Below are positions 21,412 through 59,789 of a stretch of DNA of 64,000 bases, in pieces; position 1 is the stretch's first letter; every line of letters starts with the position of its first letter. This DNA is from an uncultured Oscillospiraceae bacterium (lineage in GTDB: Bacteria; Bacillota; Clostridia; Oscillospirales; Oscillospiraceae): positions 113 to 64,112 of the forward strand of contig CAJUEG010000005.1 in NCBI GenBank assembly GCA_910584835.1. The letters run 5' to 3'. The position numbers and the translations under genes were made by a program. The notes under the pieces are model-generated. The model was given only the letters and a program-made list of their open reading frames with translations, made no database searches and was not told the origin of the DNA.

Positions 21412-21414
21412 ACC

Positions 21415-40535: not shown

Positions 40536-40536
40536 A

Positions 40537-40565
40537 AGACCGCCTGCACACCCGCAGGCGGTCTT
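40537..40565. terminator. Hairpin between convergent genes
   Basis: AAGACCGCCTGC-acaccc-GCAGGCGGTCTT. Confidence 0.7.
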
Positions 40566-40567
40566 GC

Positions 40568-41150: not shown

Positions 41151-41170
41151 CCCATTCAGCCCCTTTCTGC

Positions 41171-41204
41171 TTTACAGTATACGCCAATGCGCTGTAAAAT
41201 TCAA
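41171..41204 (-). promoter_or_regulatory. TA promoter with overlapping operator palindrome
   Basis: TTGAAT-N17-TATACT; TTTACAG...CTGTAAA at 41171-41198. Confidence 0.65.
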
Positions 41205-41242
41205 CATTAAATTTTACTACACTAAAACTGAGGTGATCAACT

Positions 41243-41587
41243 ATCGAAATCAAAATTCCAAAAGAAGTCCGCCAGCACAAGGAAAGCATTTTCTTCGGCC
41301 TGTCCGCCCGGCAGTTTTTCTGTGCCCTGTCCGCCGTGGGGATCGCCGTGGCCGTCTACCTGCTGCTGGGCCCCGCGCTGGGCAAGGAAACCGCGAGCTG
41401 GGTGTGCATCCTGGCCGCCGCGCCCGTGGCCGTGGCTGGGTTCTTCCACTACAACGGCCTGACCCTGGAGCAATTCGCCTGGGCCTTCCTCAAGTCTGAA
41501 CTGCTGTGCGCCGGGGAGCGGCGCTTTGTGTCCGAGAACTTCTACTATGCCCTGTTTCACCGAAAGGGGCGTGACGACTTTGATTAA
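41243..41587 (+). CDS. PrgI family (VirB3-like) protein; ATC start
   Basis: GAGGTGA then ATC-GAA-ATC-AAA: (M)EIKIPKEVRQHKESIFFGLSARQF; two TM segments. Confidence 0.85.
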   Translation: MEIKIPKEVRQHKESIFFGLSARQFFCALSAVGIAVAVYLLLGPALGKETASWVCILAAAPVAVAGFFHYNGLTLEQFAWAFLKSELLCAGERRFVSENFYYALFHRKGRDDFD

Positions 41588-43907: not shown

Positions 43908-43934
43908 ATCTCACCATGAGACACATTTGACCAC

Positions 43935-44999
43935 ATGGGAGAAATCACGTTAGGGAGTTTATTTGATGGGATCGGCGTGTTCCCGCTGGCGGCCCGCCGC
44001 CATGGGATCGTGCCGGTTTGGGCCAGCGAGATCGTAAAGGCCCCCATTTCCATCACCCGGCACCACTTCCCGGGCATGGAGCATTTGGGGGACATCACCA
44101 AGCTGGACGGGGGGAAGATACCCCCCGTCCATGTGCTTACCTTCGGCTCACCCTGCCAAAATTTATCTCAGATTGGCAACCGTACCGGGCTGTCCGGGGT
44201 AAAATCAAGCCTGTTTTTTCACGCGATCAGGATCATAAAAGAAATGAGGGATGCAACTGACGGACAATTTCCAGCAATCGCTGTTTGGGAGAACGTCATG
44301 GGAAGCCTTTCTTCAAATAACCGGCTGGACTATGCGGAAGTGCTCCAGGCGTTCACAGACACCGCAATTCCAATTCCTCGATCTGGAGTGTGGGCCCACG
44401 CCGGAATGGTGCGAGGCCGTGGGGTTGACCTGTGCTGGCGGCTTATGGACGCCCAATATTGGGCAGTCCCCCGGCTGGCACGACGGCAGCGTATCTTCCT
44501 CGTGGCCGGTTTTGGAGGGCGGCGTACTCACGAAATACTGTTTAAGCCCCGCCCAATGTTCCAAGTATCTCCGGCTGGCGGAGAAGGCGGGGTGCCCGCC
44601 GCCCAGGTTTATCGAGGCCCTGTTATTGAAGCAGGGGGGCGTGTACCCATCGTCCGGCCCTTCCAGCTTTTCCGAATGAGGGGGGCGGCCAATGACCGTT
44701 ACCACGTCCAGTTTCGGGACAGCTTCGGCTTTCTGGACGATCCCTTCCCCACGCTGCTGGCCGGGACGGTCTACCCCTTCGCGTTCTACTTTGCCGACGA
44801 TCCTTTGGGGGGCTGTGTGCGGTTCCCGTCGGAGCTGGAATGTGAACGGCTGATGGGCCTGCCCGACGGGTGGACGAAATACGGCGCGGAGGGGGAGAAG
44901 ATCAGCCCAGGCCAGCGTTACCGCGCATTAGGGAACGCCATCGCCCTGCCCTGCGCGGACTACATCATGGCGGGGATCAAAGAGGTACTTGACCCATGA
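43935..44999 (+). CDS. C5 DNA cytosine methyltransferase (alpha chain)
   Basis: LFDGIG; GSPCQ; WENV; RRQRIFLV; ECERLMGLP; RYRALGNA. Confidence 0.92.
   Translation: MGEITLGSLFDGIGVFPLAARRHGIVPVWASEIVKAPISITRHHFPGMEHLGDITKLDGGKIPPVHVLTFGSPCQNLSQIGNRTGLSGVKSSLFFHAIRIIKEMRDATDGQFPAIAVWENVMGSLSSNNRLDYAEVLQAFTDTAIPIPRSGVWAHAGMVRGRGVDLCWRLMDAQYWAVPRLARRQRIFLVAGFGGRRTHEILFKPRPMFQVSPAGGEGGVPAAQVYRGPVIEAGGRVPIVRPFQLFRMRGAANDRYHVQFRDSFGFLDDPFPTLLAGTVYPFAFYFADDPLGGCVRFPSELECERLMGLPDGWTKYGAEGEKISPGQRYRALGNAIALPCADYIMAGIKEVLDP
44251..44679 (+). CDS. Nested out-of-frame ORF, M.EcoHK31I beta-polypeptide-like
   Basis: 142-aa ORF inside the MTase gene; KYCLSPAQCSKYLRLAEKAG resembles the beta-chain pattern as recalled. 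Confidence 0.6.
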   Translation: MQLTDNFQQSLFGRTSWEAFLQITGWTMRKCSRRSQTPQFQFLDLECGPTPEWCEAVGLTCAGGLWTPNIGQSPGWHDGSVSSSWPVLEGGVLTKYCLSPAQCSKYLRLAEKAGCPPPRFIEALLLKQGGVYPSSGPSSFSE

Positions 45000-45056
45000 A
45001 TCCAGGGGCGCGTCCGTCAGGGCGCGCCCCGCTGCTTTTTTAAGGAGGGGAACACC

Positions 45057-47090
45057 ATACCCAAAATAAAGGAACGGAACCAAACCGAGAAAGTAAAAGG
45101 CAAAAAGAAGGGCGGCAAACCCGCCCAGACCGCCGCCCGCCGCGTCATGACGGCCAAGCTGAAAAAGGAGCTGGCCCAGCGGAAACAGGGCGGGGGCCGT
45201 CCCACCGCCGAAATACCCCGTGATAATTTCATTGACATCACCGACGTTTCCACCAACACTACCGGCTCCGCCAGCGCCGACAGCGGCGCCGGGGCCATAG
45301 AGCAGGTGGAGCAGACCACCCAGGCCGCCGTCGATATGGGCCGCGCCACCAAGCGTGGGGCGGCCATGGCCGTGTCCAAGGTGAAGCAGAAGCGCCGGGA
45401 GATCAAGGAGCGGCGGCGCCAGCCGGACGCCCAGGGCCAGCCCCCGGACACACCGACCCCGGCCCCCGGCATCCATGGTAATGATACGCTGCCTGCATCC
45501 GATGCCCGCCATGGGCGGACAGTGGACGGGGCCGCGGCACCCCCGGCCCCCACACCGGGGGATCGTATGCGCCAGCGGGCGGTAGACCAGAGGAAGGAGC
45601 AGCTTACCCGCCCCAAGGCGGGAACACCGTCCCAGGGGGAGGCCCCAGCCTCCCCCCACTACGGCGGGCCCCGGCCTGCCCCTGGCCCTGTCGCCACAAA
45701 GCCCTCCTCCGGGAACCAATCTATCAATCCATCCATCAAAGAGCGCCCCAGGCGCTCCACGCTGCTGAAAGAGAAACCCCAGGCCGGGACCATCCGGCCT
45801 AAGACCCGCCAAGCGGTAGAACAGGCCGCCCGTGTCCGGGCGGCCCCCACCGGCACCCCCGGCCCCACAGGGAAGAAAGCCACCACCAAGCATATCACTG
45901 ACCGGGCCCGGAAGAAAGCCCAGCGGGGTATGCTCCAAAAATCCAAGCAGGCGGCCCAGGTCACCGCCGACCTGTCCAAGCGGGCAGCCCAGGCCACAGT
46001 AAAGGCGGTGAAGGAGCTGATCAACGCCCTGGCCGCCCTGGTGGGCGGGGGTGCGCTGGCCACCGCCATGTGCGTGATCTTCCTGGTGGCCGCCGTGATC
46101 GCGTCCCCCTTCGGCATCCTCTTTGCCAACGAGCCGTCCCCAGGGGCGGTGCCGCTGGCCGCCGCCGTGAATCAGATCAACATGGAGCTATCCGACAAGC
46201 TGGCCGCCCTGCAAACCGGGGACTACAGCGCCATCGACATCCAGGGCGCCGCCCCGGACTGGCGGGAGGTGGCGGCGGTGTTCGCCTGCAAGACCGCCAT
46301 GGGGACGGACAGCGTGGACGTGGCCGCCCTGACCCCTGACCGGGTGGCGCGGCTAAAGGCCGTCTTTTGGGATATGTGCGCCCTTTCGTCCAGCGTGGAA
46401 ACCATCGACCACCCGGCCACGGACGATACAGAAGCATGGACAGAGAGGAAGCTGCATATCACCATCACCCCCAAGAGCGCGGACGATATGCGGACGGCCT
46501 ATGCGTTTTCCGCCGACCAAAACAGCACCTTGACGGAGCTGCTGGACGAGCTGGACGTGATTGGCGGCCTGCTGGCGAACCTGGGCATATCGGACGAAAA
46601 GGTGATAGAAGTGCTTCAGCGTTTGCCGGACGATCTTTCCCCGGAGCGGCGGGCCGTGGTGGAAACCGCTTGTAAGCTGGTGGGGAAAGTCAACTACTTC
46701 TGGGGCGGCAAGAGCAGCGCCATCGGCTGGGACCCCCGCTGGGGCACACTGATGAAAGTCACCTCGCCGGGGAATGACACCAGCGGCACCTACCGGCCCT
46801 TCGGCCTGGACTGTTCCGGGTTCCTGGACTGGGTGCTGAAAAATGTTGGCCTGCCCAGTGATGGGCATTGGTACATCGGCAGAAATTTGACGGCGGTTTC
46901 TACGGCCAACGCCAAACCGGGGGACTTTGCGCTCTATCCCGATTCGTCCCATATTGGCGTGGTGGTAGGCCGGAACGAGGCGGGGACACTGCTGATCTGC
47001 CACTGTGCCAGCGGGCAGAACAACATTGTGATCACTGAGTTTTCCGCCTCCGGCTTTACCGCTGTGGGCAAGCTGTCCTTTATGGACTGA
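45057..47090 (+). CDS. NlpC/P60 (C40) conjugation cell-wall hydrolase; ATA start proposed
   Basis: Basic N-region; TM then SPFGILF; YFWGGKS; GLDCSGF; HIG; CHC. Confidence 0.88.
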   Translation: MPKIKERNQTEKVKGKKKGGKPAQTAARRVMTAKLKKELAQRKQGGGRPTAEIPRDNFIDITDVSTNTTGSASADSGAGAIEQVEQTTQAAVDMGRATKRGAAMAVSKVKQKRREIKERRRQPDAQGQPPDTPTPAPGIHGNDTLPASDARHGRTVDGAAAPPAPTPGDRMRQRAVDQRKEQLTRPKAGTPSQGEAPASPHYGGPRPAPGPVATKPSSGNQSINPSIKERPRRSTLLKEKPQAGTIRPKTRQAVEQAARVRAAPTGTPGPTGKKATTKHITDRARKKAQRGMLQKSKQAAQVTADLSKRAAQATVKAVKELINALAALVGGGALATAMCVIFLVAAVIASPFGILFANEPSPGAVPLAAAVNQINMELSDKLAALQTGDYSAIDIQGAAPDWREVAAVFACKTAMGTDSVDVAALTPDRVARLKAVFWDMCALSSSVETIDHPATDDTEAWTERKLHITITPKSADDMRTAYAFSADQNSTLTELLDELDVIGGLLANLGISDEKVIEVLQRLPDDLSPERRAVVETACKLVGKVNYFWGGKSSAIGWDPRWGTLMKVTSPGNDTSGTYRPFGLDCSGFLDWVLKNVGLPSDGHWYIGRNLTAVSTANAKPGDFALYPDSSHIGVVVGRNEAGTLLICHCASGQNNIVITEFSASGFTAVGKLSFMD

Positions 47091-47181
47091 AAAATAAATC
47101 TCACGGTGAGACACAATTCGCAGCACGAATTAAATCTCACCGTGAGACATATTTTGTGATTCATTCCAAAACAAAGATACT

Positions 47182-47397
47182 TTATTCTTGCGGCTTGACA
47201 ACTTCCGGCTCAAAACGTACAACCTCGCTGGGAGAGCAATCTAAAATCGTACATAATTTTTCCAAAGTCAGCATGGTAATGTTTTTATTCTTTTTTAGCC
47301 AATCTAAAGTGCGGCGGTCAACTCCGGCTTGAATGAGGGCGTATTGAGTTACACCCTTTTTCTTCATTGTGTCCCATAGCGGACTGTAATCAACCAC
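47182..47397 (-). CDS. Cro/C1-type HTH regulator
   Basis: DYSPLW..MKKKG.TQY.L...TLEKLC.ILDC. Confidence 0.85.
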   Translation of the reverse strand: MVDYSPLWDTMKKKGVTQYALIQAGVDRRTLDWLKKNKNITMLTLEKLCTILDCSPSEVVRFEPEVVKPQE

Positions 47398-47451
47398 CTT
47401 GCCACCCCCCGGAAATAGTATCTCCATTATAGGGTGGGGCCAATAATTTGA

Positions 47452-47475
47452 ATATTGCACATATATGTGCAATAT
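47452..47475. promoter_or_regulatory. Perfect 24-bp palindrome, candidate operator
   Basis: ATATTGCACATATATGTGCAATAT between divergent genes. Confidence 0.65.
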
Positions 47476-47501
47476 GGTATGCTGTGGCAGGGTGATTATC
47501 T

Positions 47502-47975
47502 ATGAAAAATAAAACCTGTTGCTTCACAGGCCACCGTCAGCTACCGCCAGGAGAACGGGCGGTGATTACTAACAAGCTGGAATGTACCATAACAACCTTA
47601 TACCAAACGGGTGTCTGTTACTATGGGGCCGGGGGCGCCCTGGGGTTTGACACCCTCGCCGCCCAAGCGGTACTCCATCTGCGGGAGAGCTGCCCCGGCA
47701 TGAAGCTGATCCTCGTCCTGCCCTGTTTGACGCAAACGAGGGGATGGAGGCCGGAGGACGTTGCGGAGTATAAGCGCATCAAGGCCCAGGCGGATAAGGT
47801 TGTCTACACGTCCCAGCAATATACACCGGACTGTTGGCACAAGCGTAACCGTCATTTGGTGGACAACAGTGGGATATGTGTCTGCTATCTGACAAAGAGC
47901 GACGGAGGGACGGCTTATACCGTCAAATATGCGGAAAGACAAGGACTTGAAGTAATCAATGTTGCAATAAAATAA
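47502..47975 (+). CDS. SLOG family (DUF1273/YspA-like) protein
   Basis: CCFTGHR; GGALGFD; RNRHLVDNS; GGTAYTVKYA. Confidence 0.88.
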   Translation: MKNKTCCFTGHRQLPPGERAVITNKLECTITTLYQTGVCYYGAGGALGFDTLAAQAVLHLRESCPGMKLILVLPCLTQTRGWRPEDVAEYKRIKAQADKVVYTSQQYTPDCWHKRNRHLVDNSGICVCYLTKSDGGTAYTVKYAERQGLEVINVAIK

Positions 47976-48220
47976 ACTCTCTGTATAGGGTGTATTTCAC
48001 AAAAGAATGTGTCCCATCATGAGACACATTTCCCACAACGACCATTTTGCAAAAAAATTAGAAAAAATGCGCTCAAACTATATGGTTATAGAGTGGACAA
48101 AAAGCGGCCTGTTTTGGTAGAATACCATAGGTCGAAATGCGCGCGGCTGCCAGCGCATCATGTTTTGCAAAAATATCAAAGAAAGGGGTTGACAGGGAAT
48201 GACGTTCAGGTATGCTTTTA

Positions 48221-48268
<48 letters not shown>

Positions 48269-48384
48269 TAAAGGATACTCGACCTCTTTTCCCCTGTCAA
48301 CCCCATATTCGCTCAAAAGGCCACCTGGAAAGCATTTTTGCTGTCCGGGCGGCCTTTTTGCGCTCATTTGAGGGAGGCTGAACA

Positions 48385-50754
48385 GTGGATAAAAACTATA
48401 TCGCGCCAGCGGCGGCGTTGAAAAAGCTGAAAACGGCCCGGAGCCTGCCGCAGACAGTCTATCTCTACGGGGCCACCGGCTACGGCAAGACGGAGCTGGT
48501 GCGCCAATACCTGTCGGGCCGCCGGTACACCTACCTCTCCTGTGAGGATTTGCCCTGGGAGGCGGGGGCGCTGTCCCGGTTGGAACCGGGCAGGCAGAAT
48601 CAACGGGTGGTGGTGATCGACGACCTGCACCGGCTGAAAAGCGAGGACCTGCGCCGGGAGATTTTGGCGTTGGGGGAACGGGAGGATATATGGCTGATCC
48701 TGATCAGCCGAAGCCCCATCCCTCCGTGGCTCATGCCCCGGCACGTGAAGGACGTTTTTGTCCTGATCTCGGAGAAAGACCTCCAGATGGGCCGGAAGGA
48801 GATCACCAGCTACCTGGACGCGCGGGAGATCGCCTATACAGAAGAAGATATTCAGTATTTGCAGGACACCGCCGAGGGCAACGCCTACGTCCTCCACCAT
48901 GTAGCCCTACGGATGAAGGAGGGCAGCCTGCCCGGCCCGGAGCTTCACGATGAAATATGGGAAGCCTTTGCCTCTTATCTGGAAAATGCGGTGCTGGTAC
49001 GCTGGGACAGCGATCTGCTGGAATTTCTAATGCAGGTCAGCGTGGTGGACGAATTTACACTGGAGCTGGCGGAGATGATCTCCGGCAGCCTCCACGTCAC
49101 CGCCCTGCTGGAGCAGGCGGCGGAGGCCGGGAACTTTATGAGCCAGGAGGACGGCGTATACCGTCTGCGCCCGGTATTGATCCAGGCCCTGCGGAACCGG
49201 GCGTCAAAGATATATGGCCGGGAGCGTGTCAAGGACTTCAAATACAGCGCCGCCCTGTACTACGAAATGCACGACGAGGTGGTTCCGGCGCTGAAGCTGT
49301 TCGAGGAGTGCGGCAAAACCGAGCGTATCAAAAACCTGCTGATCCGCAACGCCCGGATGAACCCCGGCAACGGCCACTATTACGAGCTGCGCCGCTACTA
49401 TTTCAACATGGACGAGAGGGAGATTGCGGACAGCCCGGTATTGATGGCAGGCATGAGTATGCTGTACTCCATGCTGATGAACAGCGAAAAAAGCGAGTAT
49501 TGGTACGAAAAGCTGAAAGCCTACGCCGCCAGCGCCCGCGGCGGCGTCCGACGGGAGGCCCAAAGCCGTTTGGCCTACCTGGACATCGGCCTGCCCCACC
49601 GGGGGAGCCGGAGCGTTTTGGACGTTATGAAAAAAATTCCCGCCCTGCTGTTCGACAAGGGCAACCAGCTCCCGGAATTTTCCGTAACCAGCAACCTGCC
49701 CTCCACCATGAACGGCGGCAAGGATTTCTGCCATTGGAGCCCCGACGATACCATGCTGGCGAAAACGGTGGGGCCGCTGGTAGAGCGGGTGCTGGGCCGC
49801 TACGGGATAGGGCTGGTCAAGGCCGCGTTGGGCGAGAGCTTGTACGAAAAGGGCGAGGACAATTACAAGGTGATGACCCTGCTGACCAGGGCGCAGATGG
49901 AAACGGAGCAGGGCGGGACAATGGAGATCGCCTTTGCCGCTGTGGGTATCAGGATCAGGCTGGCCCTGTTCCAAGGGGACATCCAGGCGGCGCGGGAGCT
50001 GCTGGCGTCCTTTGAACAGGCCGTGAAAGAGAACCGCGCTCCCCAGCTTCTGCCCAACATCCAGGCGTTCCGATGCCGGTTGGCGCTGTATGAGGGCGAT
50101 ATGGACACCGTGGAACGCTGGATGAAAACCGCGCCGGACGAGGATGTGGAGTTTTGCAGTTTGGAGCGTTACCGCTACCTGACCAAAGCGCGCTGCTATC
50201 TGGCGAACGGGGAGTACACAAAGTCCCAGGCCCTTTTGGAAAAGCTGCGCTACTACGCCGAACAGACCAACCGGCCTTATGTCCGTATGGAAACCGGGCT
50301 GCTGTCCGCTGTCACCAAGGAGCGCGTGGGCGGGCCGTGGCAAGAGGAACTGGCCGCCGTTTTCCAGGAGGCGGAGGGCTACCGCTTCCTGCGCTTAATC
50401 AGCGAGGAGGGCGCGGCGGTATGGCCCCTGCTCCAGCGGGAGAAAAAGGCGCTGATGGAGGCCGGAACGCTGGATAAGGACTGGCTGCGCCGGGTGCTGG
50501 ACGAGGCGGAGGAAATGGCCCGCCGTTACCCCCTATATCTGAAAAAGCGGGCGGCGGCAGCGGCGGATTTCAGCGGCACCGCCCTGACCATCCTTCGTTT
50601 GCAGGCGGATGGCCTGTCCCTCAATCAGATCGCTAAAAAATTAGATATGAAATCATTTTCCGTTTCCTATCATATCCAGGAAAACTATCGAAAGCTGAAT
50701 GTTTCCCGCAAGGCTGACGCGCTAATTGCGGCCCGGAGCCTGGGGCTTTTATAG
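48385..50754 (+). CDS. MalT-like ATP-binding regulator with C-terminal LuxR HTH
   Basis: GATGYGKT; VIDD; C-terminal GLSLNQIAKKL...VSYH...YRKLNV. Confidence 0.85.
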   Translation: MDKNYIAPAAALKKLKTARSLPQTVYLYGATGYGKTELVRQYLSGRRYTYLSCEDLPWEAGALSRLEPGRQNQRVVVIDDLHRLKSEDLRREILALGEREDIWLILISRSPIPPWLMPRHVKDVFVLISEKDLQMGRKEITSYLDAREIAYTEEDIQYLQDTAEGNAYVLHHVALRMKEGSLPGPELHDEIWEAFASYLENAVLVRWDSDLLEFLMQVSVVDEFTLELAEMISGSLHVTALLEQAAEAGNFMSQEDGVYRLRPVLIQALRNRASKIYGRERVKDFKYSAALYYEMHDEVVPALKLFEECGKTERIKNLLIRNARMNPGNGHYYELRRYYFNMDEREIADSPVLMAGMSMLYSMLMNSEKSEYWYEKLKAYAASARGGVRREAQSRLAYLDIGLPHRGSRSVLDVMKKIPALLFDKGNQLPEFSVTSNLPSTMNGGKDFCHWSPDDTMLAKTVGPLVERVLGRYGIGLVKAALGESLYEKGEDNYKVMTLLTRAQMETEQGGTMEIAFAAVGIRIRLALFQGDIQAARELLASFEQAVKENRAPQLLPNIQAFRCRLALYEGDMDTVERWMKTAPDEDVEFCSLERYRYLTKARCYLANGEYTKSQALLEKLRYYAEQTNRPYVRMETGLLSAVTKERVGGPWQEELAAVFQEAEGYRFLRLISEEGAAVWPLLQREKKALMEAGTLDKDWLRRVLDEAEEMARRYPLYLKKRAAAAADFSGTALTILRLQADGLSLNQIAKKLDMKSFSVSYHIQENYRKLNVSRKADALIAARSLGLL

Positions 50755-50827
50755 GCCGAGAAATATGTCTCACGGTGAGACACATTAAAGCAAGGGATAT
50801 TTTGAGCATAAAGGAGGCGAACCGCTT

Positions 50828-51301
50828 ATGAGCAAGGACAGCTCCAACCAGCACTTCACCCCGCCGCGAAACGCGAAGCCCATAGACCCGGTTTTGCGGT
50901 TTGGCATGGAGATGAACTACAAAACCATTTATGTCGTCTTTTGCGGGGGCTTTCCCACGCTGTCGGCGTACCTGTGTTTTCAAGAAGATGTGGAGGTATA
51001 CCACGTCAGCACCGCCGAGGAACTGCGGGGGCTGCTGACCGGCGCGGACGGCATACCGGCTGATCTGGCCGTGATATACAGCCCTGACTTCCAGATACTC
51101 CCGCCTATGGCGTTCTTTTCCCCAGTGGACGGCCACGAGACTATGGTGCAATTTTCCCTTGACGCCGCGATTGCCGACGAGGACGGGCTGAACGAATGGT
51201 GTTCCTTGATAGACAGCCTGCGGGCCAAAAAACGGCAGTTTGTAGAGGGATATAAACGATACAGCGAACTATACCCCGAATCGAAGGAGGATTCCAAATG
51301 A
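50828..51301 (+). CDS. Hypothetical protein
   Basis: RBS AAGGAGG; ATGA overlap with the next gene. Confidence 0.65.
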   Translation: MSKDSSNQHFTPPRNAKPIDPVLRFGMEMNYKTIYVVFCGGFPTLSAYLCFQEDVEVYHVSTAEELRGLLTGADGIPADLAVIYSPDFQILPPMAFFSPVDGHETMVQFSLDAAIADEDGLNEWCSLIDSLRAKKRQFVEGYKRYSELYPESKEDSK

Positions 51302-54300
51302 AGCGCAGAATTTTGAGTATCATCACCGCTCTGGCCCTGTGCCTGAGCCTTTGCCCCACCTGGGCGCTGGCTGCGGAGGCAGACCCGTCCCTCTGCGAGC
51401 ACCACCCGGAACATACCGAGGACTGCGGCTACACCGCCCCCACCGAGGGCCACGACTGCGGCCATGAGCACACAGCGGAGTGCTACACGCTGGGCGTCCT
51501 CCCCGACGCGGACAGCGGCGACCCCTACGAGATCGGCGGGGACACGGAAAACCTGCTGGACTGCCAGCACAGCCATAACAGCGAATGTGGCTATGTAGAG
51601 GCCGACCCCGGCGCGCCCTGCGGGTATGAGTGCCGTATCTGTCCCATCGAGGACTTGATCGCCGCCCTGCCGGAGCAGGTGACGGAGGACAACCGGGCGG
51701 ACGTGGAGGCACAGCTCCAGGAGATTCTCGGCCTGTTTTCAGACCTGACCGAGGAGGAACAGGAGGAGATCAACCTCTCCCGAATCTATGCGCTGCAAGG
51801 GGCGCTGGACGAAGCCAACAACCCCATGCCCCTGGCGGGGGCCGTTGAGTACGTGGACGCGGCTGGGAACGCCCAGCAAAGCCCGGCGGACTGCGTGACC
51901 ATCACGGCAGACATGGCGAACAAGAATTTGACCGGCGGCTGGTATGTAGCGGAGGGGAATGTCACCATTAACGGCGCACTCAATTTTAATGGCGAAACCC
52001 ACCTCATTCTCGCCGACGGCTGTACGCTGACCGTGAATAACAACTTACAAACCACGAATCTGACCATTTACGGCCAGACGAACGGCACGGGCTTCCTCTG
52101 TGCGGGCAATAACAGTCTGAGAGCGCCGGCTATTGGCGCTCTGTCATCAAATGTTGCCATTACCATCAATGGCGGCTGCGTACAAGCGATGAGCTTTACC
52201 ATTGTCGTAGGAACAGCGCCATATTATGTAATTGGCGGTCTTGATGGTAGTACTGTAACTATCAACGGTGGCATTGTGGCTGCCAAGGACTCTTATAATA
52301 CCGGACGCACTTTTCCTCAAAACTGTACAGCCAATAGTTCCCGAGGCTGCATTGTCGCTCGGGACGGCGTTGGGGAGGTCTACGGCAGCATGACTCTGGC
52401 GGAAACCTCCGGGAGCGGCATCACGCTATCCTCCCTGCACATCAGCAAGGGCGCAAGCCTGAACAGCCCGGGCAGATGGAAAAGCATTTCCATTACTATG
52501 GAGGATCTGCCGACTGACGATCAATTTAATATTACATTAAAAGATGGGATAAACGCAGCTTCCACCGAGGAGGAAATCAGGAATGCCATTCAAGTCCAGT
52601 CTCCTTATAAAGAGATAGGCCATACCGGAGCCTTCACCATAACAGGTTTGTCGGATGAGAATGTCACACAGATTACAAAAAGCGAGGATGGAACGTGCAT
52701 CGTCACTTTTACCAAGAACGGAAAAGTAGTTACTAGAAATTTCAAGCTGGAAAAGTTGAAAATCGATTCCTCCAGCGTAAGTCTGCCTTGGGACAGTTCT
52801 TACGCTTACACCGGCAGCGCCATTGAGCCAGAGTTCACTGTGACTGTGGAGAAGAAGGTTTTGACAAAGGGTACAGATTATACGGTGGAATACGCCAATA
52901 ACATCAATATTGGTAATGCAACCCTCACCGTGACCGGCATAGGGAACTACGAAGGCACCGTCGAGAAGACTTTTAGAATCACCGATTCGGATGCACTGAT
53001 AGAAGTACAGTATGTCGACGAGTCCGGGCAGAGGCAGACTGCCCAGGCAAAGGCCATCTCAACAATGCTTAACACGACCCAGCTGACTTTGGAGGAGGGC
53101 TGGTACTTCGTGCAAGGCGCAGCGGCCAGGTTTACTATAACTGTGCCGGCTGGGACTACCAGTTACCTCATCCTGCCGGACGGTAGTTCTCTGTACGCGG
53201 GGAGCTTGAATCTGAGTGGCAGCTTGACTATTTATGGGCAGTCCGGAAACAGAGGAAAGCTGGATGCGGGCCCTAGTATGAACAGTACCCTGGTTCCTAT
53301 CCAGCTTAACAATGCGGGAACCCTCACCGTCAATGGTGGGAATTTGTCTGTGACGAAATCTATCGGGGGAGATTTGGCAATCAAACTTTCAAAAAACTGT
53401 ATCTTCACCTACAACAGCGAGAGCGGCCTTTTTAGAGTCAACGGCAGCTTCAATAATAATAATGGCACCCTGCAAACCGAGCGGTTGACGGAGGATATGA
53501 TCGCCGTTGATACAGAAAGGCTCCCCGTTGGCACCGATGAGGATTTGTCGGAAACGGTCAAGGGCTGCGTCAGCCTGGAAAACCCCACCTACGCCGGGAA
53601 AGAGTTTATCCTAACCGGCTGGACGCAGTCGTCCGTCACCAGGCAGGACAACTGCACCTACATCGTCACTTACTCCCACGAAACGAGGGGGACGGTCAGC
53701 AAAACGGTATCGCTGGGCCAGCCCTGCGACCACCTAAGCCAGGGGTACATCAGCAATAACGACGGCACCCACACCAAGACCTGTCTGGACTGCGGCAAAA
53801 CGTGGGATGCGGAGGGCTGCGCCTACGTTTTCAGCGGTGCCGACGGCACCTGCGCGGCGTGCGGGGACAGCGTGACCGTGGCGGTTTCCGGCACGGAGAA
53901 CCTGATCTATGACGGCACTGAGAAAAAGCCGGGAGTGACCGTCACAAGGGCTGGTACGGAGTTGGCAACGAGCAATTATACGGTAGCCTACACCGACAAC
54001 ACCAACGCCGGTACAGCCAAAGTGACCGTGACCATCGGGAATAATCAGGGCACATATAACGGGAGTTTCACCATCGGCAAGGCCACGCCCACGATCACAT
54101 GGGACACCACGGCCCAGGAGCTGCCCTATACCGGCAATCCAGCGGCCATTACAGCGCCCGCCGTGAAGCTGGTGAACAACGAAAACTTTGGGGGGACAAT
54201 CAGCTATTCCTACGCGACCCAAGGCGGCACCGAGTATAAGGACGGCCTGCCTACCAACGCCGGGACATACACCATCAAGGCCAGTATTGCGGCCCAGGGC

Positions 54301-57207
54301 AACTACACCGCCGCCGACAGCACAAACACGCTGACGCTGACCATAAATCCGACCCCAGTAACGTTGACTTTTGCCAATCAGACGATTGCCTACGGCGACA
54401 CACCGACAGGAGCTACCGCTGACCCCGCCAGCGCAAAGATCGAGTATTCCTACACCACCGAAGCAGGCGGCACACCGATCTCCGGCTGGCCCACAAACGC
54501 GGGAACCTACACCGTCACCGCCAAGGTTAAAGCCACCGGCAACTACGGGGAGGCCATCCAAACCGCAACCCTGACGATTAACCCAAAAGCGGTCAGCAAT
54601 CCAACCATTGAGCTGTCCCCCAGCAGCTTTGACTATGACGGCACTGCAAAGAAGCCCGCTGTCACCGTGAAGGACGGCACTACCGTGATCCCGGCCAGCG
54701 AGTACACAGTGGCCTACAGCAACAACATCAACGCTGGCACCGCCACCGTCACCATCACCGACAAGACGGGCGGCAACTACACCGTCAGCGGCACCACGAC
54801 CTTCACTATCACCGCCAAGCCCCTCACCGGGGCGAAAGTGGAAGCCACCGGCACGTTTACCTACACCGGGAACGCACAGGAGCCAGCACCCACCGTGACC
54901 CTGGGCGGGCAACCGCTGACGGCGAACACCGACTACACAGTGACCTACGACGACAACACCAACGCTGGCACCGCCAAAATCACCGTCACCGGGACGGGCA
55001 ACTATTCCGGCACCGCCCAGGGCACCTTTACCATCGGCAGGGCCGACCTGACCGCAGACGGCACCGGCATCGCCAGCGGCACCTATGGCGATAAGCTGTC
55101 CGGGCTGACCGTTTCCGGCCTGACCGCCAAGCTGGGCGAGGCCACGGTGACAGGCACCTGGAAGCTGACCGGGGACACCGTGCCCAATGTGGGGGACAGC
55201 GGCCAATACACCGCCACCTTCACCCCGGCCACCGGTGCGGGCAACTACAACGCGCTGACGGCCCAAGTGACACTGAGCATCGCCAAGGCAAACTATACCG
55301 GCACCACCACGGCAAGTACCTCCGCCAAATTCGGCACCACCGGGACCTATGACCTCTCGGCCCTGCTCCCGGATGGGGCCACGGCGGGGACAGCGGCCAC
55401 CACCAGCGATATTTTTGAGGGGACGCCCACCGTTAGCGGCAAGGCCCTGACCTACCAACTGAAAGCAGGCGCAACGGTTGGCAACACCGGCCCGATCACC
55501 GTGCCCGTGATCTCCACGAACTATCAGGAGTTCAACTTGACCATCACCGTCACCGTGACGGACAAATTCGTGCCCACCCTGACCGTCAGCCCCATCACCG
55601 TCACCTACAGCGGCGAGGCAATCCCCGGCACCGCCATCAAGGGCACGGCCAAGGTGGGGAGCACCACCGTCCCCGGCACCTGGGCCTTTGCCTCCGGCGA
55701 AGCTGTCACCAACGTGGCGGACAGCGGCACAAAGACCGTCAAATTCGTGCCAACCGATAAGGCCACCTACGCCGAGGCCACCGCCGTCGTCGTTGTGACC
55801 ATCGGCAAGGCTACCCCCACGGGCGCGCCCAAGTACACCGCAATTTCTGCCAGCGGCAAGACCCTGGCCGACGCCGGACTGACCACCGAGGGCGGCACTT
55901 TCAGCACTACGGGCACCGTGGCCTGGGCCCTGGGCACAGATACAGCGGTAACGGCCAACACCCAGTACGAGTGGACGTTCACTCCCACCGACGCCGCCAA
56001 CTACAACACCCTGACGGGCAAGATCACACTTTGGGTACAGAGCACGGGCGGCGGCAGCTACGTGCCCTCCGGCCCCGGCAGCTCCAGCCTGCCCGTGACC
56101 ACCACCGGCCAGGGCAGCACCACCACGACCACCACGACCACCGCGGCCCCCACCGCTACCACCCAGGGCGGCACAGCAACCACCACCATCAACACCACCA
56201 TGGGCCAGGAGATCGTGAAGCAGGCCGTGGCTAACAAGAGCGAGGAAGTGGTGATCGCCCCCAAAGTCACCGGGAGCGTCACCAAGGCCGAGGTTTCCAT
56301 CCCGGCCTCAACCGTGGGCCAGATCGGGAGCCAGACCAGCGCGAGCCTGACCGTTTCCACCCCCGTGGCCGATGTGACCATCCCCAACGGGGGCCTGGGC
56401 AGCCTGGGCAGCGCGGGCGGCACCGTGACTGTCACAGCGGAGCAGGTCGGGAACCAGGTGGAGCTAACCGTGACGGCGGGCGGCCAGACCGTTCAGACCG
56501 TCCCAGGCGGCGTAACCCTCACCGTGCCCGCGTCCAACACCACCCCCGGCACCGTGGCCGTGCTGGTTCGCCCGGACGGCACGCGGCAGGTGGTGCGGAA
56601 ATCCGTGGCGGACGGGGACAGCGTGACGATCCCGCTGGACGGCTCAGCCAAGCTGGAAATCGTGGACAACAGCGGCTATTTTGCCGACGTGCCCGCCACG
56701 AGCTGGGCGGCGGACGCCGTGGCCTTTGCCAGCGGACACGAGCTGTTCAGCGGCACCGCCCCCGGCCAGTTCAGCCCCAACACCCCCATGAGCCGGGGGA
56801 TGCTGGCGGTGGTGCTCCACAACCTGGAGAGCAACCCCGCCCAGGCCCTCACGGGCGCATTTATCGACGTGGACAACAGCCAGTGGTATGCCGAGGGCGT
56901 GGCCTGGGCGGAGGCCCAGGGCATCATCGGGGGCTACGGCAACGGGCAGTTTGGCCCCAATGACAACATCACCAGGGAGCAGTTGGCCGTCATGCTGTGG
57001 CGCTATGCTGGAAGCCCTGCCGCGACGGATCGGGAGCTGCACTTTGCCGACGCGCACCGGGCCAGCGACTGGGCATTGGAAGCCCTGCGCTGGGCCACGG
57101 AGAACGGTATCATCAATGGAAAGGGCGGCGGAATCCTCGATCCCACCGGGCAGGCCACACGTGCGGAAACGGCGCAGATGTTAAAAAATTTCATGGAATC
57201 CAAATAA
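51298..57207 (+). CDS. Large SLH-anchored surface protein with Ig/MBG-like repeats
   Basis: Signal peptide; Cys/His-rich N-region; DYTVxY.NN.NAGTA repeats; three C-terminal SLH repeats. Confidence 0.9.
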   Translation: MKRRILSIITALALCLSLCPTWALAAEADPSLCEHHPEHTEDCGYTAPTEGHDCGHEHTAECYTLGVLPDADSGDPYEIGGDTENLLDCQHSHNSECGYVEADPGAPCGYECRICPIEDLIAALPEQVTEDNRADVEAQLQEILGLFSDLTEEEQEEINLSRIYALQGALDEANNPMPLAGAVEYVDAAGNAQQSPADCVTITADMANKNLTGGWYVAEGNVTINGALNFNGETHLILADGCTLTVNNNLQTTNLTIYGQTNGTGFLCAGNNSLRAPAIGALSSNVAITINGGCVQAMSFTIVVGTAPYYVIGGLDGSTVTINGGIVAAKDSYNTGRTFPQNCTANSSRGCIVARDGVGEVYGSMTLAETSGSGITLSSLHISKGASLNSPGRWKSISITMEDLPTDDQFNITLKDGINAASTEEEIRNAIQVQSPYKEIGHTGAFTITGLSDENVTQITKSEDGTCIVTFTKNGKVVTRNFKLEKLKIDSSSVSLPWDSSYAYTGSAIEPEFTVTVEKKVLTKGTDYTVEYANNINIGNATLTVTGIGNYEGTVEKTFRITDSDALIEVQYVDESGQRQTAQAKAISTMLNTTQLTLEEGWYFVQGAAARFTITVPAGTTSYLILPDGSSLYAGSLNLSGSLTIYGQSGNRGKLDAGPSMNSTLVPIQLNNAGTLTVNGGNLSVTKSIGGDLAIKLSKNCIFTYNSESGLFRVNGSFNNNNGTLQTERLTEDMIAVDTERLPVGTDEDLSETVKGCVSLENPTYAGKEFILTGWTQSSVTRQDNCTYIVTYSHETRGTVSKTVSLGQPCDHLSQGYISNNDGTHTKTCLDCGKTWDAEGCAYVFSGADGTCAACGDSVTVAVSGTENLIYDGTEKKPGVTVTRAGTELATSNYTVAYTDNTNAGTAKVTVTIGNNQGTYNGSFTIGKATPTITWDTTAQELPYTGNPAAITAPAVKLVNNENFGGTISYSYATQGGTEYKDGLPTNAGTYTIKASIAAQGNYTAADSTNTLTLTINPTPVTLTFANQTIAYGDTPTGATADPASAKIEYSYTTEAGGTPISGWPTNAGTYTVTAKVKATGNYGEAIQTATLTINPKAVSNPTIELSPSSFDYDGTAKKPAVTVKDGTTVIPASEYTVAYSNNINAGTATVTITDKTGGNYTVSGTTTFTITAKPLTGAKVEATGTFTYTGNAQEPAPTVTLGGQPLTANTDYTVTYDDNTNAGTAKITVTGTGNYSGTAQGTFTIGRADLTADGTGIASGTYGDKLSGLTVSGLTAKLGEATVTGTWKLTGDTVPNVGDSGQYTATFTPATGAGNYNALTAQVTLSIAKANYTGTTTASTSAKFGTTGTYDLSALLPDGATAGTAATTSDIFEGTPTVSGKALTYQLKAGATVGNTGPITVPVISTNYQEFNLTITVTVTDKFVPTLTVSPITVTYSGEAIPGTAIKGTAKVGSTTVPGTWAFASGEAVTNVADSGTKTVKFVPTDKATYAEATAVVVVTIGKATPTGAPKYTAISASGKTLADAGLTTEGGTFSTTGTVAWALGTDTAVTANTQYEWTFTPTDAANYNTLTGKITLWVQSTGGGSYVPSGPGSSSLPVTTTGQGSTTTTTTTTAAPTATTQGGTATTTINTTMGQEIVKQAVANKSEEVVIAPKVTGSVTKAEVSIPASTVGQIGSQTSASLTVSTPVADVTIPNGGLGSLGSAGGTVTVTAEQVGNQVELTVTAGGQTVQTVPGGVTLTVPASNTTPGTVAVLVRPDGTRQVVRKSVADGDSVTIPLDGSAKLEIVDNSGYFADVPATSWAADAVAFASGHELFSGTAPGQFSPNTPMSRGMLAVVLHNLESNPAQALTGAFIDVDNSQWYAEGVAWAEAQGIIGGYGNGQFGPNDNITREQLAVMLWRYAGSPAATDRELHFADAHRASDWALEALRWATENGIINGKGGGILDPTGQATRAETAQMLKNFMESK

Positions 57208-57217
57208 GGGCATGAGA

Positions 57218-57249
57218 GAACAGGGCGGACAATCCGCCCTGTTCTTTTT
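57218..57249 (+). terminator. Rho-independent terminator
   Basis: GAACAGGGCGGA-caa-TCCGCCCTGTTC then T-run. Confidence 0.8.
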
Positions 57250-57434
57250 GCACCAAATTTTGCAAAATATGTAGAAAAAAAGCAGAAAGAAATAAATCTC
57301 ACCATGAGACACAATTTGAAAAATCAGTCGTTTCCCATAACCTTTTAGAATATTTTGACTACTTTTTGCGCTTATCTTTCAAAATCGGGATTTTTAGGAA
57401 GTTAAGTTATAGAAAGGAAAAAGGAGAAGGGCAT

Positions 57435-57863
57435 ATGGACAGAAGATATGAGCAATTCAATGAAATGACCTTTGAATCCTACATCAGAAAAGCAATCGAC
57501 AATGCGGTAAATAAAGTAGGCAAAAAGCAAGCCGAGCGAGAGCAATGGGAACAATCCTTATCCACCATGACAGACGCGGATTTATATTCCGTTTCCCCAA
57601 AGGACGCAGAAATTAAGGGCGTGGGGCAGGTGGGCCGGATATTCCGAGTGCAGGAAGAAGATATATCCATTTATGATGAAACATTGGGGCAAGCTCTTTT
57701 GTCCCTTCTGCCCAAAGATCGCAACGTGATTTTGATGTATTATTTCCTCAAAATGACCGATGAAAAGATTTCCCATGTGCTGGGTGTCACCCGCGCTGCT
57801 GTTCAGCAGCGGCGGAACAACGCCATAAAAAAGCTACACGCACGTTTGGAGGATAGCACATGA
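57435..57863 (+). CDS. Sigma-70 region 4-like protein (Tn916 Orf7-like)
   Basis: TFESYIRK; LGQALLSL...R.VILMYYF..MTD..I...LG..R..V...R. Confidence 0.8.
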   Translation: MDRRYEQFNEMTFESYIRKAIDNAVNKVGKKQAEREQWEQSLSTMTDADLYSVSPKDAEIKGVGQVGRIFRVQEEDISIYDETLGQALLSLLPKDRNVILMYYFLKMTDEKISHVLGVTRAAVQQRRNNAIKKLHARLEDST

Positions 57864-58105
57864 AATGGGTGCCCTTTCCTGTCATATCGGCAGCGAAAGA
57901 ATATGATGCGGAGGCGATTGAGTTCATTTGCCGCCACTTTGAGAGATACATAGTGTACCGCAGCGTCCGAAAATACAGCGATTTATACGGAAATGAGAAA
58001 TCCTTTTTGGATGATGAACGCTATTCCGAGGCGCAAACGGCCATGCTGTCCGCCATTTTCTCGTTTGACTTTAGGGAGCCCCCCGAGGATTATCACGCCG
58101 GTTGA
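57860..58105 (+). CDS. Small HTH protein (Tn916 Orf8-like)
   Basis: PFPVI.AA...D.EAI..I..HF..YI; ATGA overlap with the Orf7-like gene. Confidence 0.75.
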   Translation: MKWVPFPVISAAKEYDAEAIEFICRHFERYIVYRSVRKYSDLYGNEKSFLDDERYSEAQTAMLSAIFSFDFREPPEDYHAG

Positions 58106-58184
58106 ATTTTCATCCGGCAGGAGTATGCCACATACGGCGGCACATTCCTGCGGGCTGAAAATAGCCTGAATCACAACTGAATAG

Positions 58185-58458
58185 GGCAGTCAGATACGTT
58201 CCATATCGCGTTGAGCCAAGCGGCGGGTGCGCAGGGACGTTCCACCGGGAAGGGAGGGAATAGGCCGGGAGGAACCGAGCGAACACCACCAGCGCCGCAA
58301 AGCGGCCCCAGGCAGGGCCGCGGGCGATTATGCGCGTATGGGTAATGATGATACTTGCGTCAGCTATGCGTCACAGTATAGGGCGCCCCGCCATGGGTAT
58401 GGAGGGAGGCACGGTAATTTCCTATGAGGCGGTTTGCCAACCGCCGTCTGAATCTGCC
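58185..58458 (+). ncRNA. Candidate structured RNA, ~275 nt
   Basis: Ends pair (GGCAG-TCAGA / TCTGA-at-CTGCC); several internal stems; no convincing ORF. Confidence 0.5.
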
Positions 58459-58481
58459 TTTGGAGCTATATCGTGAACGGC

Positions 58482-58512
58482 AAAATCCGCGCTGACCGCC
58501 AGCGCGGATTTT
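58482..58512 (+). terminator. Terminator-like hairpin
   Basis: AAAATCCGCGCTG-accgc-CAGCGCGGATTTT. Confidence 0.7.
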
Positions 58513-58541
58513 GTCGTTTCAAATCTCACCGTGAGACACGA

Positions 58542-58569
58542 ATATGAAACAGTCTATGCGGCATATCTT
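58542..58569 (+). promoter_or_regulatory. SigE-like promoter
   Basis: ATA-N17-CATATCTT, same geometry as the sigK promoter. Confidence 0.55.
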
Positions 58570-58603
58570 CCCTGTGTAGACTGACAAAAGGGGGCGCAAG
58601 ACA

Positions 58604-58789
58604 GTTAATATCATCGTACATTACCCGGAAGATAAAGAGAAACAGCGGGAACTCGCCAAAAGGGTCGCTTACGTCCACGCTCAGACGATAGCCGAAAAGT
58701 TGGCGACCCTGTCCTGCCCTGTGGAACAGAAAGCGGCGCTATGCGATGAAATCAAGAAACGATACAAGGCCGCCAATAAAATGAGATAA
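58604..58789 (+). CDS. 61-aa protein absent from the ORF track; candidate recombination directionality factor
   Basis: AGGGGG-N9-GTT; (M)NIIVHYPEDKEKQRELAKRVAYVHAQTIAEKLATLSCPVEQKAALCDEIKKRYKAANKMR. Confidence 0.6.
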   Translation, partial: VNIIVHYPEDKEKQRELAKRVAYVHAQTIAEKLATLSCPVEQKAALCDEIKKRYKAANKMR

Positions 58790-58823
58790 GAAGCGAGGAG
58801 TAGGGGAGAGGGAAAGCCATCCT

Positions 58824-59342
58824 CTACTCCTCGAATCTTTTTAGGTTCTTCCAGGTTCTTTTTGTGATCGACACCCGATTCTGTTCCCATTGCTGCAAGG
58901 TTCCAAAGGGGACGCCGAGGTATTTTGCGTACTCTTTTTGCGTCATGCTTTTCTGTGCTCGGGCCTGCCTGATCTGCTGGCCCTGGCCGTGATAGAGGAA
59001 CAGGTTGAAATCATCCAGGAGCCTTGTGACAGGGACGGAGAACAGCTCCGCAATTTTCCGCATGGTTTCAATGGGATAATAGTCTCGCCCAATTTCTTCA
59101 TAGCTGGAGTATGTGGTGCGGTCTATCCCAGCGTACTCCGCCACATCCTTTTGCCGCAAACCCTGGCTGTATCTGTACCAGCGGAGCTTGTCCGGCGTAT
59201 TGTGGATTTGAGAGGGATCGGTGTATTGGATGTTGAACTTTTCTGCCTCCACCAGCGTGTGAGGTTGGACAAGCTGGAAGCTGTGAATGTAGAGAGGTGC
59301 GTAGATAACGCCCGTGGGAGTATGGAGAACCATTATTTTCAT
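58824..59342 (-). CDS. Protein with two XRE-type HTH domains
   Basis: KLRWYR...LRQKDVAEYAGIDRTTYSSYE and IRQAR...MTQKEYAKYLGVPFGTLQQWEQ. Confidence 0.85.
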   Translation of the reverse strand: MKIMVLHTPTGVIYAPLYIHSFQLVQPHTLVEAEKFNIQYTDPSQIHNTPDKLRWYRYSQGLRQKDVAEYAGIDRTTYSSYEEIGRDYYPIETMRKIAELFSVPVTRLLDDFNLFLYHGQGQQIRQARAQKSMTQKEYAKYLGVPFGTLQQWEQNRVSITKRTWKNLKRFEE

Positions 59343-59416
59343 GCGGCCCGATATGTGGCCGAACGTACGCCATTTTTCGCCAAAGTATGTACGATTGCCC
59401 ACATCGAGGGACTTTT

Positions 59417-59441
59417 GAGCCGTTGCGAGTGAATAGTATTT
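59417..59441. other. Right att junction (inverted-repeat arm plus core)
   Basis: GAGCCGTTgcgAGTGAATAG-T-ATTT. Confidence 0.9.
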
Positions 59442-59770
59442 TCAATGCATCGGCTGGCATAGGTGGCAAGCCTGACGTTTTTGTCCGGCTTGAATGTGGA
59501 TACCCCTTTAATCAGCCCAATGGTTCCGATGGAAATCAAGTCGTCCTGATCACCATTGGGTGTGTAATATTTTTTTACAATGTGCGCCACCAGCCGCAGA
59601 TTATGTTCAATGAGCATATCCCTGGCATCATCATCCCCTTGAGCCATCCGATCCAGACAATTCTGCTCCTCCTCCCGGGTAAGGGCCCGGGGAAAGGAGC
59701 CCGTATTCCCCGCCAGCCGCAGGGTAAAGAACAGTCCGTTCAGTGTCAATAACAGCCATGCCGTCCACAT
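59438..59770 (-). CDS. sigK: RNA polymerase sporulation sigma factor SigK, 5' half (111 aa, with pro-sequence)
   Basis: LIEHNLRLVAHIVKKY; DDLISIGTIGLIKG; RLATYASRCIEN, then similarity breaks. Confidence 0.95.
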
Positions 59771-59789
59771 GGACACCACCTCCACTCAA

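Follow-up and report, generated by a model that had tools for sequence, protein, structure and literature searches.

The placement of attP inside the open reading frame (ORF) of an integrase is known from the Mx8 and SSV-type systems. The integrase of Mx8 is a tyrosine recombinase of a phage. In the accessible part of the published account, attP lies within the ORF of Mx8 IntP, and integration provides a new 3' end and hence a protein with a different C-terminus and changed properties (PMC6070905). For the archaeal, SSV-type 'suicidal' tyrosine integrases, the recombination site is described, in the available part of the source, as lying in the integrase ORF, which is split upon integration (PMC7253208). 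Here, a serine-recombinase variant of this principle is described from a 64,000-nucleotide (nt) stretch of DNA of an uncultured Oscillospiraceae bacterium (GenBank assembly GCA_910584835.1, contig CAJUEG010000005.1, positions 113 to 64,112 of the forward strand), referred to throughout as the window, in which the sporulation gene sigK is interrupted by an element of 45,353 base pairs (bp). With a probability of about 0.7, this is an element moved by a large serine recombinase, with attP inside a predicted translation unit and a helix-turn-helix (HTH) module made only, or mainly, on the excised circle.

As in Mx8 IntP, attP lies inside the reading frame of the integrating enzyme, the product of which is altered by integration. 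Here, however, a large serine recombinase carried by a conjugative or mobilizable element is involved, and it targets a sporulation gene that has to be restored on excision. A whole folded DNA-binding module (a hairpin and two HTH domains) is gained or lost, and this module also exists as an ORF at the opposite element end. The SSV-type integrases have their recombination site inside the integrase ORF, as is the case here, but their split inactivates the integrase, whereas in the window the catalytic protein is complete when integrated and the C-terminal module alone is detached. As the enzyme contains serine recombinase domains only, it would work like the Mx8 and SSV-type systems without being a member of them.

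In B. subtilis, the large serine recombinase SpoIVCA excises the skin element from sigK. The corresponding element of C. difficile is described, in the part of the account that was available, as having the large serine recombinase CD1231 and the directionality factor CD1234; excision of sigK elements by the large serine recombinase rebuilds sigK, and attL and attR consist of inverted repeats around a short common core (PMC5025042). The large serine recombinase, the rebuilding of sigK and the inverted repeats around a short core are all shared between skin and the window. The element described here is, however, conjugative, whereas skin is a defective prophage, and a frame across attP is not mentioned in the accessible part of the C. 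difficile account (PMC5025042), the two being compared by description. Such a frame is also not mentioned in the available portion of a survey of large recombinases (PMC10083194), and a literature search, which had most subscription journals outside its reach, found no account of attP within an ORF for a serine recombinase.

Transfer genes of Tn916 are read across the joint of the circle, and in Tn4451 a promoter at the joint drives TnpX. As in the window, the circular joint of these transposons makes an expression unit that is absent when integrated; theirs is transcriptional, whereas here a protein-coding frame would be completed, either fused or translationally coupled. In engineered fusions of integrases with directionality factors, an accessory protein on the C-terminus of a serine integrase changes directionality. 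Unlike those man-made fusions, in which the partner is an established directionality factor, the present one would be natural and arise via recombination. To our knowledge, large serine recombinases have been thought to be steered by separate directionality factors only.

The frame across attP and the split sigK gene

On the minus strand of the window, sigK is interrupted between C-I-E-N and E-I-L-M by the element (positions 14089-59441, one core copy counted). At one end of it lies the gene of a large serine recombinase (14083..15861, minus strand), which is without a stop codon of its own: it ends AGC AAA TGA, and only the T of TGA is in the core, the GA being sigK DNA. At the other end lies a double-HTH ORF (58824..59402, minus strand) of 192 amino acids (aa) from a GTG at 59402. 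When the element ends of the window were joined by script, a single ORF was obtained across attP, of 796 aa from GTG or 793 aa from ATG (589 + 204). An earlier note on this DNA had already read the recombinase stop as completed by sigK DNA beyond the core and predicted a 793-aa protein (589 + 204) on the excised circle; the stop was found to be as described, and the joined ends gave exactly this length together with the predicted junction peptide. The same note had set beforehand the building of attP in homologous elements as a test of the frame. An open fused ORF of 761-795 aa, running to the natural HTH C-terminus, was obtained for 23 of 23 paired relatives, to which the window adds its 796 aa. 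The 23 pairs comprise 21 genomes with both ends and two from other families of the class (G334 and G173), and two paired elements with an inverted core also gave an open fused ORF. For four of the joins, the fourth core base was taken from the flank, which altered one residue and left the length the same, and in the pair of L114 and L053 the junction was one base off (by eye), the frame being open as built.

Stops in the linker, named in advance by the earlier note as speaking against a fusion, were counted in a set of HTH-end loci, the best 80 of 174 relatives, chosen by HTH similarity from species genomes. These 80 loci represent 77 distinct sequences with 69 distinct linkers, and fall into 25 clusters at 90% identity. 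Across the 12 linker codons from the core to the supposed HTH start, the fusion frame contained a stop in 1/77 (L073), as opposed to 43/77 and 56/77 for the other two frames, and there was still a single locus with a linker stop when the 25 clusters (at least 90% identity) were considered. Chance, which had been allowed for as an explanation of the open frame, is contradicted by these numbers and by the 23 open pairs. The predicted in-frame arrangement of recombinase and HTH ORF was concluded to be real and conserved beyond chance.

The att sites have the form expected of a large serine recombinase. A core of 4 bp, AAAT on the minus strand, is common to both junctions. It lies at 59438..59441 in attL and at 14085..14088 in attR, where its T and the two sigK bases that follow make up the TGA of the integrated recombinase. 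Strand exchange was placed at its AA dinucleotide, attL and attR of L036/L103 differing on either side of AA. Inside the element, the core is bordered by 21-nt inverted repeats with mismatches at three inner positions (read by eye), giving attP the form of an imperfect palindrome of ~46 bp. The P arm (14089..14109, minus strand) codes for the last 7 residues of the recombinase, and the P' arm (59417..59437, minus strand) corresponds to linker codons 2-8 in the fusion frame, with low variability and no codon pattern. The variable part of the linker, between this arm and the GTG (59403..59416, minus strand), contains no Shine-Dalgarno-like motif and is too short for a promoter, for which the element has no room upstream of the GTG.

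The 5' part of sigK (59438..59785, minus strand) has 116 codons, ends C-I-E-N and carries Sigma70_r2 (PF04542, E 4.8e-15), while the 3' part (13728..14084, minus strand) extends from E-I-L-M to the stop and carries Sigma70_r4 (PF04545, E 1.1e-15). Joined by coordinates, the two give a 234-aa ORF that is uninterrupted through C-I-E-N-E-I-L-M and can be aligned with the intact sigK of the relative G060 (135 identical in 225 columns, 60%), which argues that precise excision restores an intact sigK. No attB or attP junction words were found in the source assembly, as expected for a consensus assembly. The read data consisted of contigs only, and four of the 24 runs listed were compared with 58600-59800; no joint was reported in the contigs of these four, which is no evidence either way. 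A contig of an RNA library (X15) covers 59052-59441 and stops at the element end, and is uninformative on strand or state.

The recombinase is 592 aa long from GTG, or 589 aa from the ATG at 15852, with matches to Resolvase (PF00239, E 4.7e-35), Recombinase (PF07508, E 2e-18) and Zn_ribbon_recom (PF13408, E 3.4e-9) and an invariant Y-S-R-K-S block near the N-terminus. It is a large serine recombinase by its domains and the form of its att sites, and recombination activity is predicted. A search of 61 related genomes returned recombinase orthologues (66-97% identity) that share a single end point in sigK. The flank TGA again serves as the stop in G030, G026, G034 and G023. In G025, sigK has AAC instead of AAT, so that no TGA is formed and the recombinase runs 19 codons into sigK. 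The sole orthologue of that search with a stop of its own, a TAG in the arm in another frame, is that of G053 (66% identity, element of ~5.7 kilobases (kb)). In 21 of 21 further genomes, reached via the HTH-end loci, the recombinase had no stop of its own: 14 stop at the flank TGA, four run into the sigK 3' part, two into the antisense of the sigK 5' part and one into another flank. A protein search yielded 120 recombinase cluster representatives, of which 76 end exactly at the arm-encoded S-K/E; the rest run into the sigK 3' part out of frame (22), are fused (1), run into other sequence (1) or were unclassed by motif (20).

The double-HTH ORF contains two HTH_3 stretches (E 5.6e-18). The AlphaFold model of its product (predicted local distance difference test score of 85) has a disordered start, a beta hairpin at residues 11-26 that begins at a conserved K-W, and two Cro/C1-type HTH domains. 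Comparison of the model by Foldseek returned SinR, DdrO and P22 c2 (template modelling score to target of up to 0.89 over ~65 residues; E 2e-3 or weaker); generic HTH domains only were matched, and the N-terminal hairpin had no Foldseek match. By modelled fold and domain match, the protein is a Cro/C1 (XRE)-type regulator. Complex prediction for recombinase and HTH protein was uninformative (scores of 0.00, 0.58 and 0.27). Three exceptions to the frame were seen among the relatives: a 1-nt deletion in an A-run just after the GTG in L051, the TGA at linker codon 2 in L073, and in P0108 (318 aa) a 1-nt insertion, deduced from the protein, by which the HTH protein is joined in frame to the sigK 5' part in the integrated state. 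These may be decayed copies, errors or real variants.

Natural fused ORFs and separate HTH ORFs

Fused ORFs also occur as database entries. P0161 is a fused ORF of 790 aa from a protein database with all recombinase and HTH domains, which has 67% identity to the window recombinase over the C-terminal region searched (residues 380-592). In its model, the recombinase is folded, with long helices after the zinc ribbon, and the HTH domains are confident, on either side of a low-confidence region at 560-652 that includes the junction. P0241, likewise a fused ORF, has 774 aa; its contig is at most 63 kb long. A profile-free exhaustive search with P0161 added ten further 50%-cluster representatives with Resolvase, Recombinase, Zn_ribbon and HTH_3 domains, of 668-823 aa, all of them rare (1-5 members) and on contigs of up to 48.8 kb. 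The junction signature of S-K followed by C/Y was found again in P0243, P0260 and P0268, in which the linker lengths differ and the frame is kept. P0268 had no match past about residue 587 of 716 among 399 genomes of the class, a weak comparison with a best identity of 43%. No record spanning both the recombinase and the HTH part was found in a plasmid collection by tblastn with P0161, and among viral contigs no relative was found with the recombinase as single query, nor any match to the attP-type pattern; alignment of the HTH protein to viral contigs gave one integrated copy, L014. On the 52-kb plasmid record CM003332.1, a 38%-identical resolvase at positions 65-1672 ends 65 bases from the record start, and the annotation under this match also names an HTH family protein; this may be a parallel arrangement across the record origin.

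A scan of metagenome sequences for the attP-type pattern returned 19 contigs, five of which have the order recombinase, core, HTH. One of the five (L146) holds a complete fused ORF, with 573 + 211 codons open across the junction. Two others (L138 and L148) are open over the junction; upstream, their frame closes inside the recombinase region, at a distance of 172 and 102 codons from the junction, respectively, and downstream L148 runs off the contig end. In the remaining two (L131 and L132), following two 1-nt insertions, the recombinase frame ends 19 codons past the core in a TGA that overlaps an ATG (ATGA) preceded by GAGGTG; L132 encodes a separate HTH protein of 188 aa, and the HTH ORF of L131 is broken further on.

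Separate HTH ORFs were also seen in sister clades. Six sigK-site recombinases that are more distantly related were compared, and three of them terminate at a TAA of their own ahead of the arm. The distance from this TAA to a downstream ATG is 2 nt in G177, where an AAGGA-like stretch directly precedes the ATG (by eye), and 14 or 23 nt in G265; in both cases the ATG is on the recombinase side of attP. On the in-silico circles of the two, this ATG opens a double-HTH ORF of 157-160 aa across attP, and the integrated ORF is without a start. As the HTH protein is separate in some relatives, the conserved feature would be the circle-dependent expression of the HTH module and not a covalent modification of the recombinase. 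Put in terms of the predicted ORFs, it is a translation unit crossing attP, usually a fusion in the clade of the window and elsewhere a tightly coupled pair, and the recombinase-linked translation signals of the HTH ORF are predicted to be assembled only on the circle, whether the protein is fused or separate.

The other 14 contigs of the metagenome scan are seven tail-to-tail recombinase pairs, four contigs with another flank and three singletons (L139, L142 and L141), the last of which is an integrated copy in a sigK variant (flank read by eye). In the seven tail-to-tail contigs (L133, L134, L136, L137, L140, L143 and L147), different serine recombinase genes are paired, ~100 nt apart, around an arm, core and inverted arm, with the frame of one gene extending for 101 codons into antisense sequence of its partner. 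These contigs may represent nested or back-to-back elements. In the four contigs with another flank (L130, L135, L144 and L145), a recombinase with the same tail type takes a stop from the flank four codons past the core, followed by a terminator-like hairpin (by eye), with no HTH gene within 3 kb (474 bases only in L145). These may represent a third design or another target site.

Probable circle-dependent expression and its alternatives

On the circle, formed after excision or transfer, the recombinase ORF would read over attP into a flexible linker, the beta hairpin and the two Cro/C1 HTH domains, for a total of 793 aa. Integration into sigK would cut this ORF, leaving a 589-aa part that keeps all catalytic and DNA-binding domains and borrows a TGA from sigK, and stranding the HTH part 45 kb away at the other end without a promoter, a ribosome-binding site and, often, a start codon. 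Excision would thereby rebuild two genes together: chromosomal sigK and, on the circle, the recombinase-HTH unit. We infer that the fused protein is made, and that the circle-restricted HTH module is a selected function, a regulator reporting the excised state. As the elements are conjugative, mobilizable or small and replicative, it is also the circle that reaches new cells, so that integration would take place in the presence of the long form. The HTH module may regulate genes of the element, act as a tether at attP or modify directionality.

Several observations weigh against this interpretation. The HTH-end loci are not independent, having been chosen by HTH similarity, and fused ORFs taken from protein databases are open ones by construction; P0161 and P0241 are known as protein records, the circular state of their source contigs being putative. 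Linker codons 10-13 are unconserved with no clear codon pattern, and the linker was modelled as disordered in P0161. No HTH partner was found for G053 or G428, sigK-targeting elements in which the recombinase has its own stop. Covalent fusion, as predicted from these sequences, is not universal, since two of the five real attP contigs (L131 and L132) as well as G177 and G265 encode a separate HTH protein. Because arbitrary recombinase tails are tolerated, as seen in the read-through of 22/120 representatives, a fused tail could be neutral. A GTG is found at the supposed HTH start in 49/77 loci and an ATG in P0013, P0021 and P0241, so that independent initiation is possible in many loci. Finally, the HTH gene is co-oriented with, and directly downstream of, the sigK 5' fragment in 74/80 loci, and the sigK promoter could therefore express it when integrated.

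These last points underlie the main rival explanation, in which the HTH ORF is an ordinary separate gene that is active when integrated, by mother-cell read-through from the sigK promoter and with its own GTG or re-initiation after the truncated sigK. It would, for example, time excision, and the fusion on the circle would be incidental to tight packing of the ends. The gene follows the sigK C-I-E-N junction in 74/80 loci, at a distance of 35 nt, with antisense sigK 3' DNA and an inverted core in two and a non-sigK flank in four (by eye); in the window, 35 nt separate its GTG from the core. In many relatives, the truncated sigK frame stops in the arm, a few codons before the GTG. Gene callers give a separate protein of 168-214 aa, L131 and L132 have a well-spaced GAGGTG and ATG, and the excision factor of the C. 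difficile sigK element is described, in the accessible part of the source, as being under mother-cell control (PMC5025042). An independent start is, however, poorly matched by the codons at its supposed position (n = 77), which are GTG in 49, GTA in 11, GTT in 3 and other non-start codons in 14. A start-capable codon is thus absent in 28/77, and the mixture of GTG, GTA and GTT suggests that the position behaves as an internal valine and not as a start. In 27/80 loci, no canonical start is present from the core to this position; in 11 of the 27, a stop in the flank additionally closes the frame. In the window, the GTG is not preceded by a Shine-Dalgarno-like motif, and the HTH frame is open upstream as far as a TGA in the sigK 5' DNA; the truncated sigK frame does not stop until 60 nt past the GTG, which speaks against coupling of sigK and HTH translation there. 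The HTH end faces antisense sigK 3' DNA in L019 and L032, where the start position reads ATA and TCC, and the start codon lies across attP in G177 and G265. A separate gene would also leave the stop-less recombinase of 21/21 relatives unexplained. Two other starts were considered. Codon 37 (ATG 26, TTG 24, CTG 27), used by some gene callers, was rejected because CTG is as frequent there as the start-capable codons, the position is inside the second modelled beta strand and the segment upstream is conserved as coding. Some loci could take a start from sigK flank DNA, two codons ahead of the core, but in many, including the window, this route is closed by TGA. A separate gene active in the integrated state is possible for the loci with GTG or ATG, and as a general explanation it appears unlikely.

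It could also be argued that attP simply overlaps the 3' end of one gene and the 5' end of another, by chance or as a neutral by-product, with the frame inherited from one ancestor, the arms constrained as recombinase-binding sites and the read-through product functionless. The arm of the window is stop-free in every frame (by eye), no more than about five codons of the linker can vary freely, random tails at the C-terminus of the recombinase are tolerated, and many of the loci are near-identical copies spread among species. Against this, the frame is kept over the 25 sequence clusters, different recombinase tail types and both core orientations, as well as in the distant fused proteins P0243, P0260 and P0268 despite their differing linker lengths, while stops are frequent in the other two frames of the linker (43/77 and 56/77). 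Where the fusion is broken (G177, G265, L131/L132), it is replaced by coupled restart. Furthermore, start codons are lost while the N-terminal segment stays conserved as coding: in the ungapped alignment block, which has 75 distinct rows, codons 14-38 are free of insertions and deletions and evolve as coding (entropy of 0.92, 0.81 and 1.15 at codon positions 1, 2 and 3), W24 being invariant and K23 and F20 almost invariant. A neutral origin was accordingly regarded as very improbable.

A translation unit across attP with a circle-dependent HTH module remains the preferred interpretation. A more far-reaching version, in which the position of attP is a sensor of both directionality and state, is a tentative suggestion that we consider doubtful. 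The long, circle-only protein would act differently from the short chromosomal form, so that one recombination event rewires enzyme and regulation without a separately regulated factor; for example, the HTH domains might tether the enzyme to element sites, the long form might integrate but not excise (or the reverse), or element genes might be switched off or on. Under such a sensor model, the rebuilding of sigK and that of the regulator would be two halves of one switch. The integration-state switch proposed in the earlier note stands in so far as the encoded products differ by state, but not as a covalent change of the recombinase being the conserved feature, the HTH protein being separate in G177, G265, L131 and L132. 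The effect that the note proposed for the switch, on directionality, stability or regulation of the recombinase, would be a further possibility. Its analogy with temperate phages that place attP inside a gene likewise holds in principle and needs adjusting as regards the phage, because the element is conjugative and not a prophage.

Cargo, distribution and significance

By gene content, the intervening element (14089..59441) is an integrative conjugative element that sits in sigK as the skin element does, and prophage identity is excluded. It encodes RepA_N/DUF6017, ParB_N and ArdA proteins, an ArdC-like protein, a sortase, two DNA methylases, a 1908-aa SpaA-type pilin, a VirD4-type coupling protein (T4SS-DNA_transf, E 2.4e-62; 36999-38765) and a VirB4-like ATPase (P-loop_TraG/DUF87; 41526-43907). 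No relaxase family was found at E <= 1e-5 among the element proteins, of which the RepA_N/DUF6017 protein (16007-17011) and several ORFs without a family remain. The element also contains an orf7/orf8-like sigma and HTH_16 pair. These genes (57366-58105, plus strand) point at the element end at 59441, and this strand, followed across the joint, leads first into the recombinase in antisense and next into the genes for replication and transfer (16007 onward, plus strand). By analogy with Tn916, circularisation could also connect the sigma and HTH_16 genes transcriptionally to those of replication and transfer. Immediately outside the element, the window encodes (8362-13512, plus strand) a 1716-aa secreted protein of many near-identical ~80-residue repeats.

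The arrangement occurs on conjugative, mobilizable and small replicative elements of ~8 to ~138 kb, the carriers of which, by record titles, include Oscillospiraceae, Intestinimonas, Flavonifractor, Dysosmobacter, Ruthenibacterium and others; it is common across gut Clostridia. The same pair of recombinase and HTH ends bounds very different cargo in L117 (G063), L118 (G062) and L129 (G334), among which are 15-17-kb elements with restriction or defence-like genes and MobC/RepA_N, and an 8.4-kb element with a rolling-circle Rep and a single-stranded DNA-binding protein, suggesting that the ends are a portable integration module. Non-sigK flanks abut the same HTH end in L066, L071, L072 and L075 (upstream of position 4001); three of these genomes yielded no close recombinase at E <= 1e-80. 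In the mouse-gut run X2, a 2150-base contig connects the element end of the window itself (59441) to a different sequence. From such flanks, the family would appear to use other sites too. In several relatives (G023, G030, G026, G034 and L014), sigK is cut a second time, near residue 73 (G023:C12 53917-54135 and 63151-63315; G030:C2 5348-5572 and C72 11772-11918; L014 1-2800), and in the IMG/VR contig L014 a different 621-aa serine recombinase and an XRE gene precede the residue-73 piece. The second break suggests that sigK is able to hold two intervening elements at once.

With attP inside a reading frame, the integrated and the circular element would encode different proteins, which amounts to a built-in knowledge of the element's own state. 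In annotation, the stops routinely given to these recombinases are borrowed ones and the starts given to the HTH genes are arbitrary; for genome-writing tools, the natural integrating form may be the long one. The arrangement also bears on how elements residing in an essential sporulation gene coordinate excision, transfer and re-integration.

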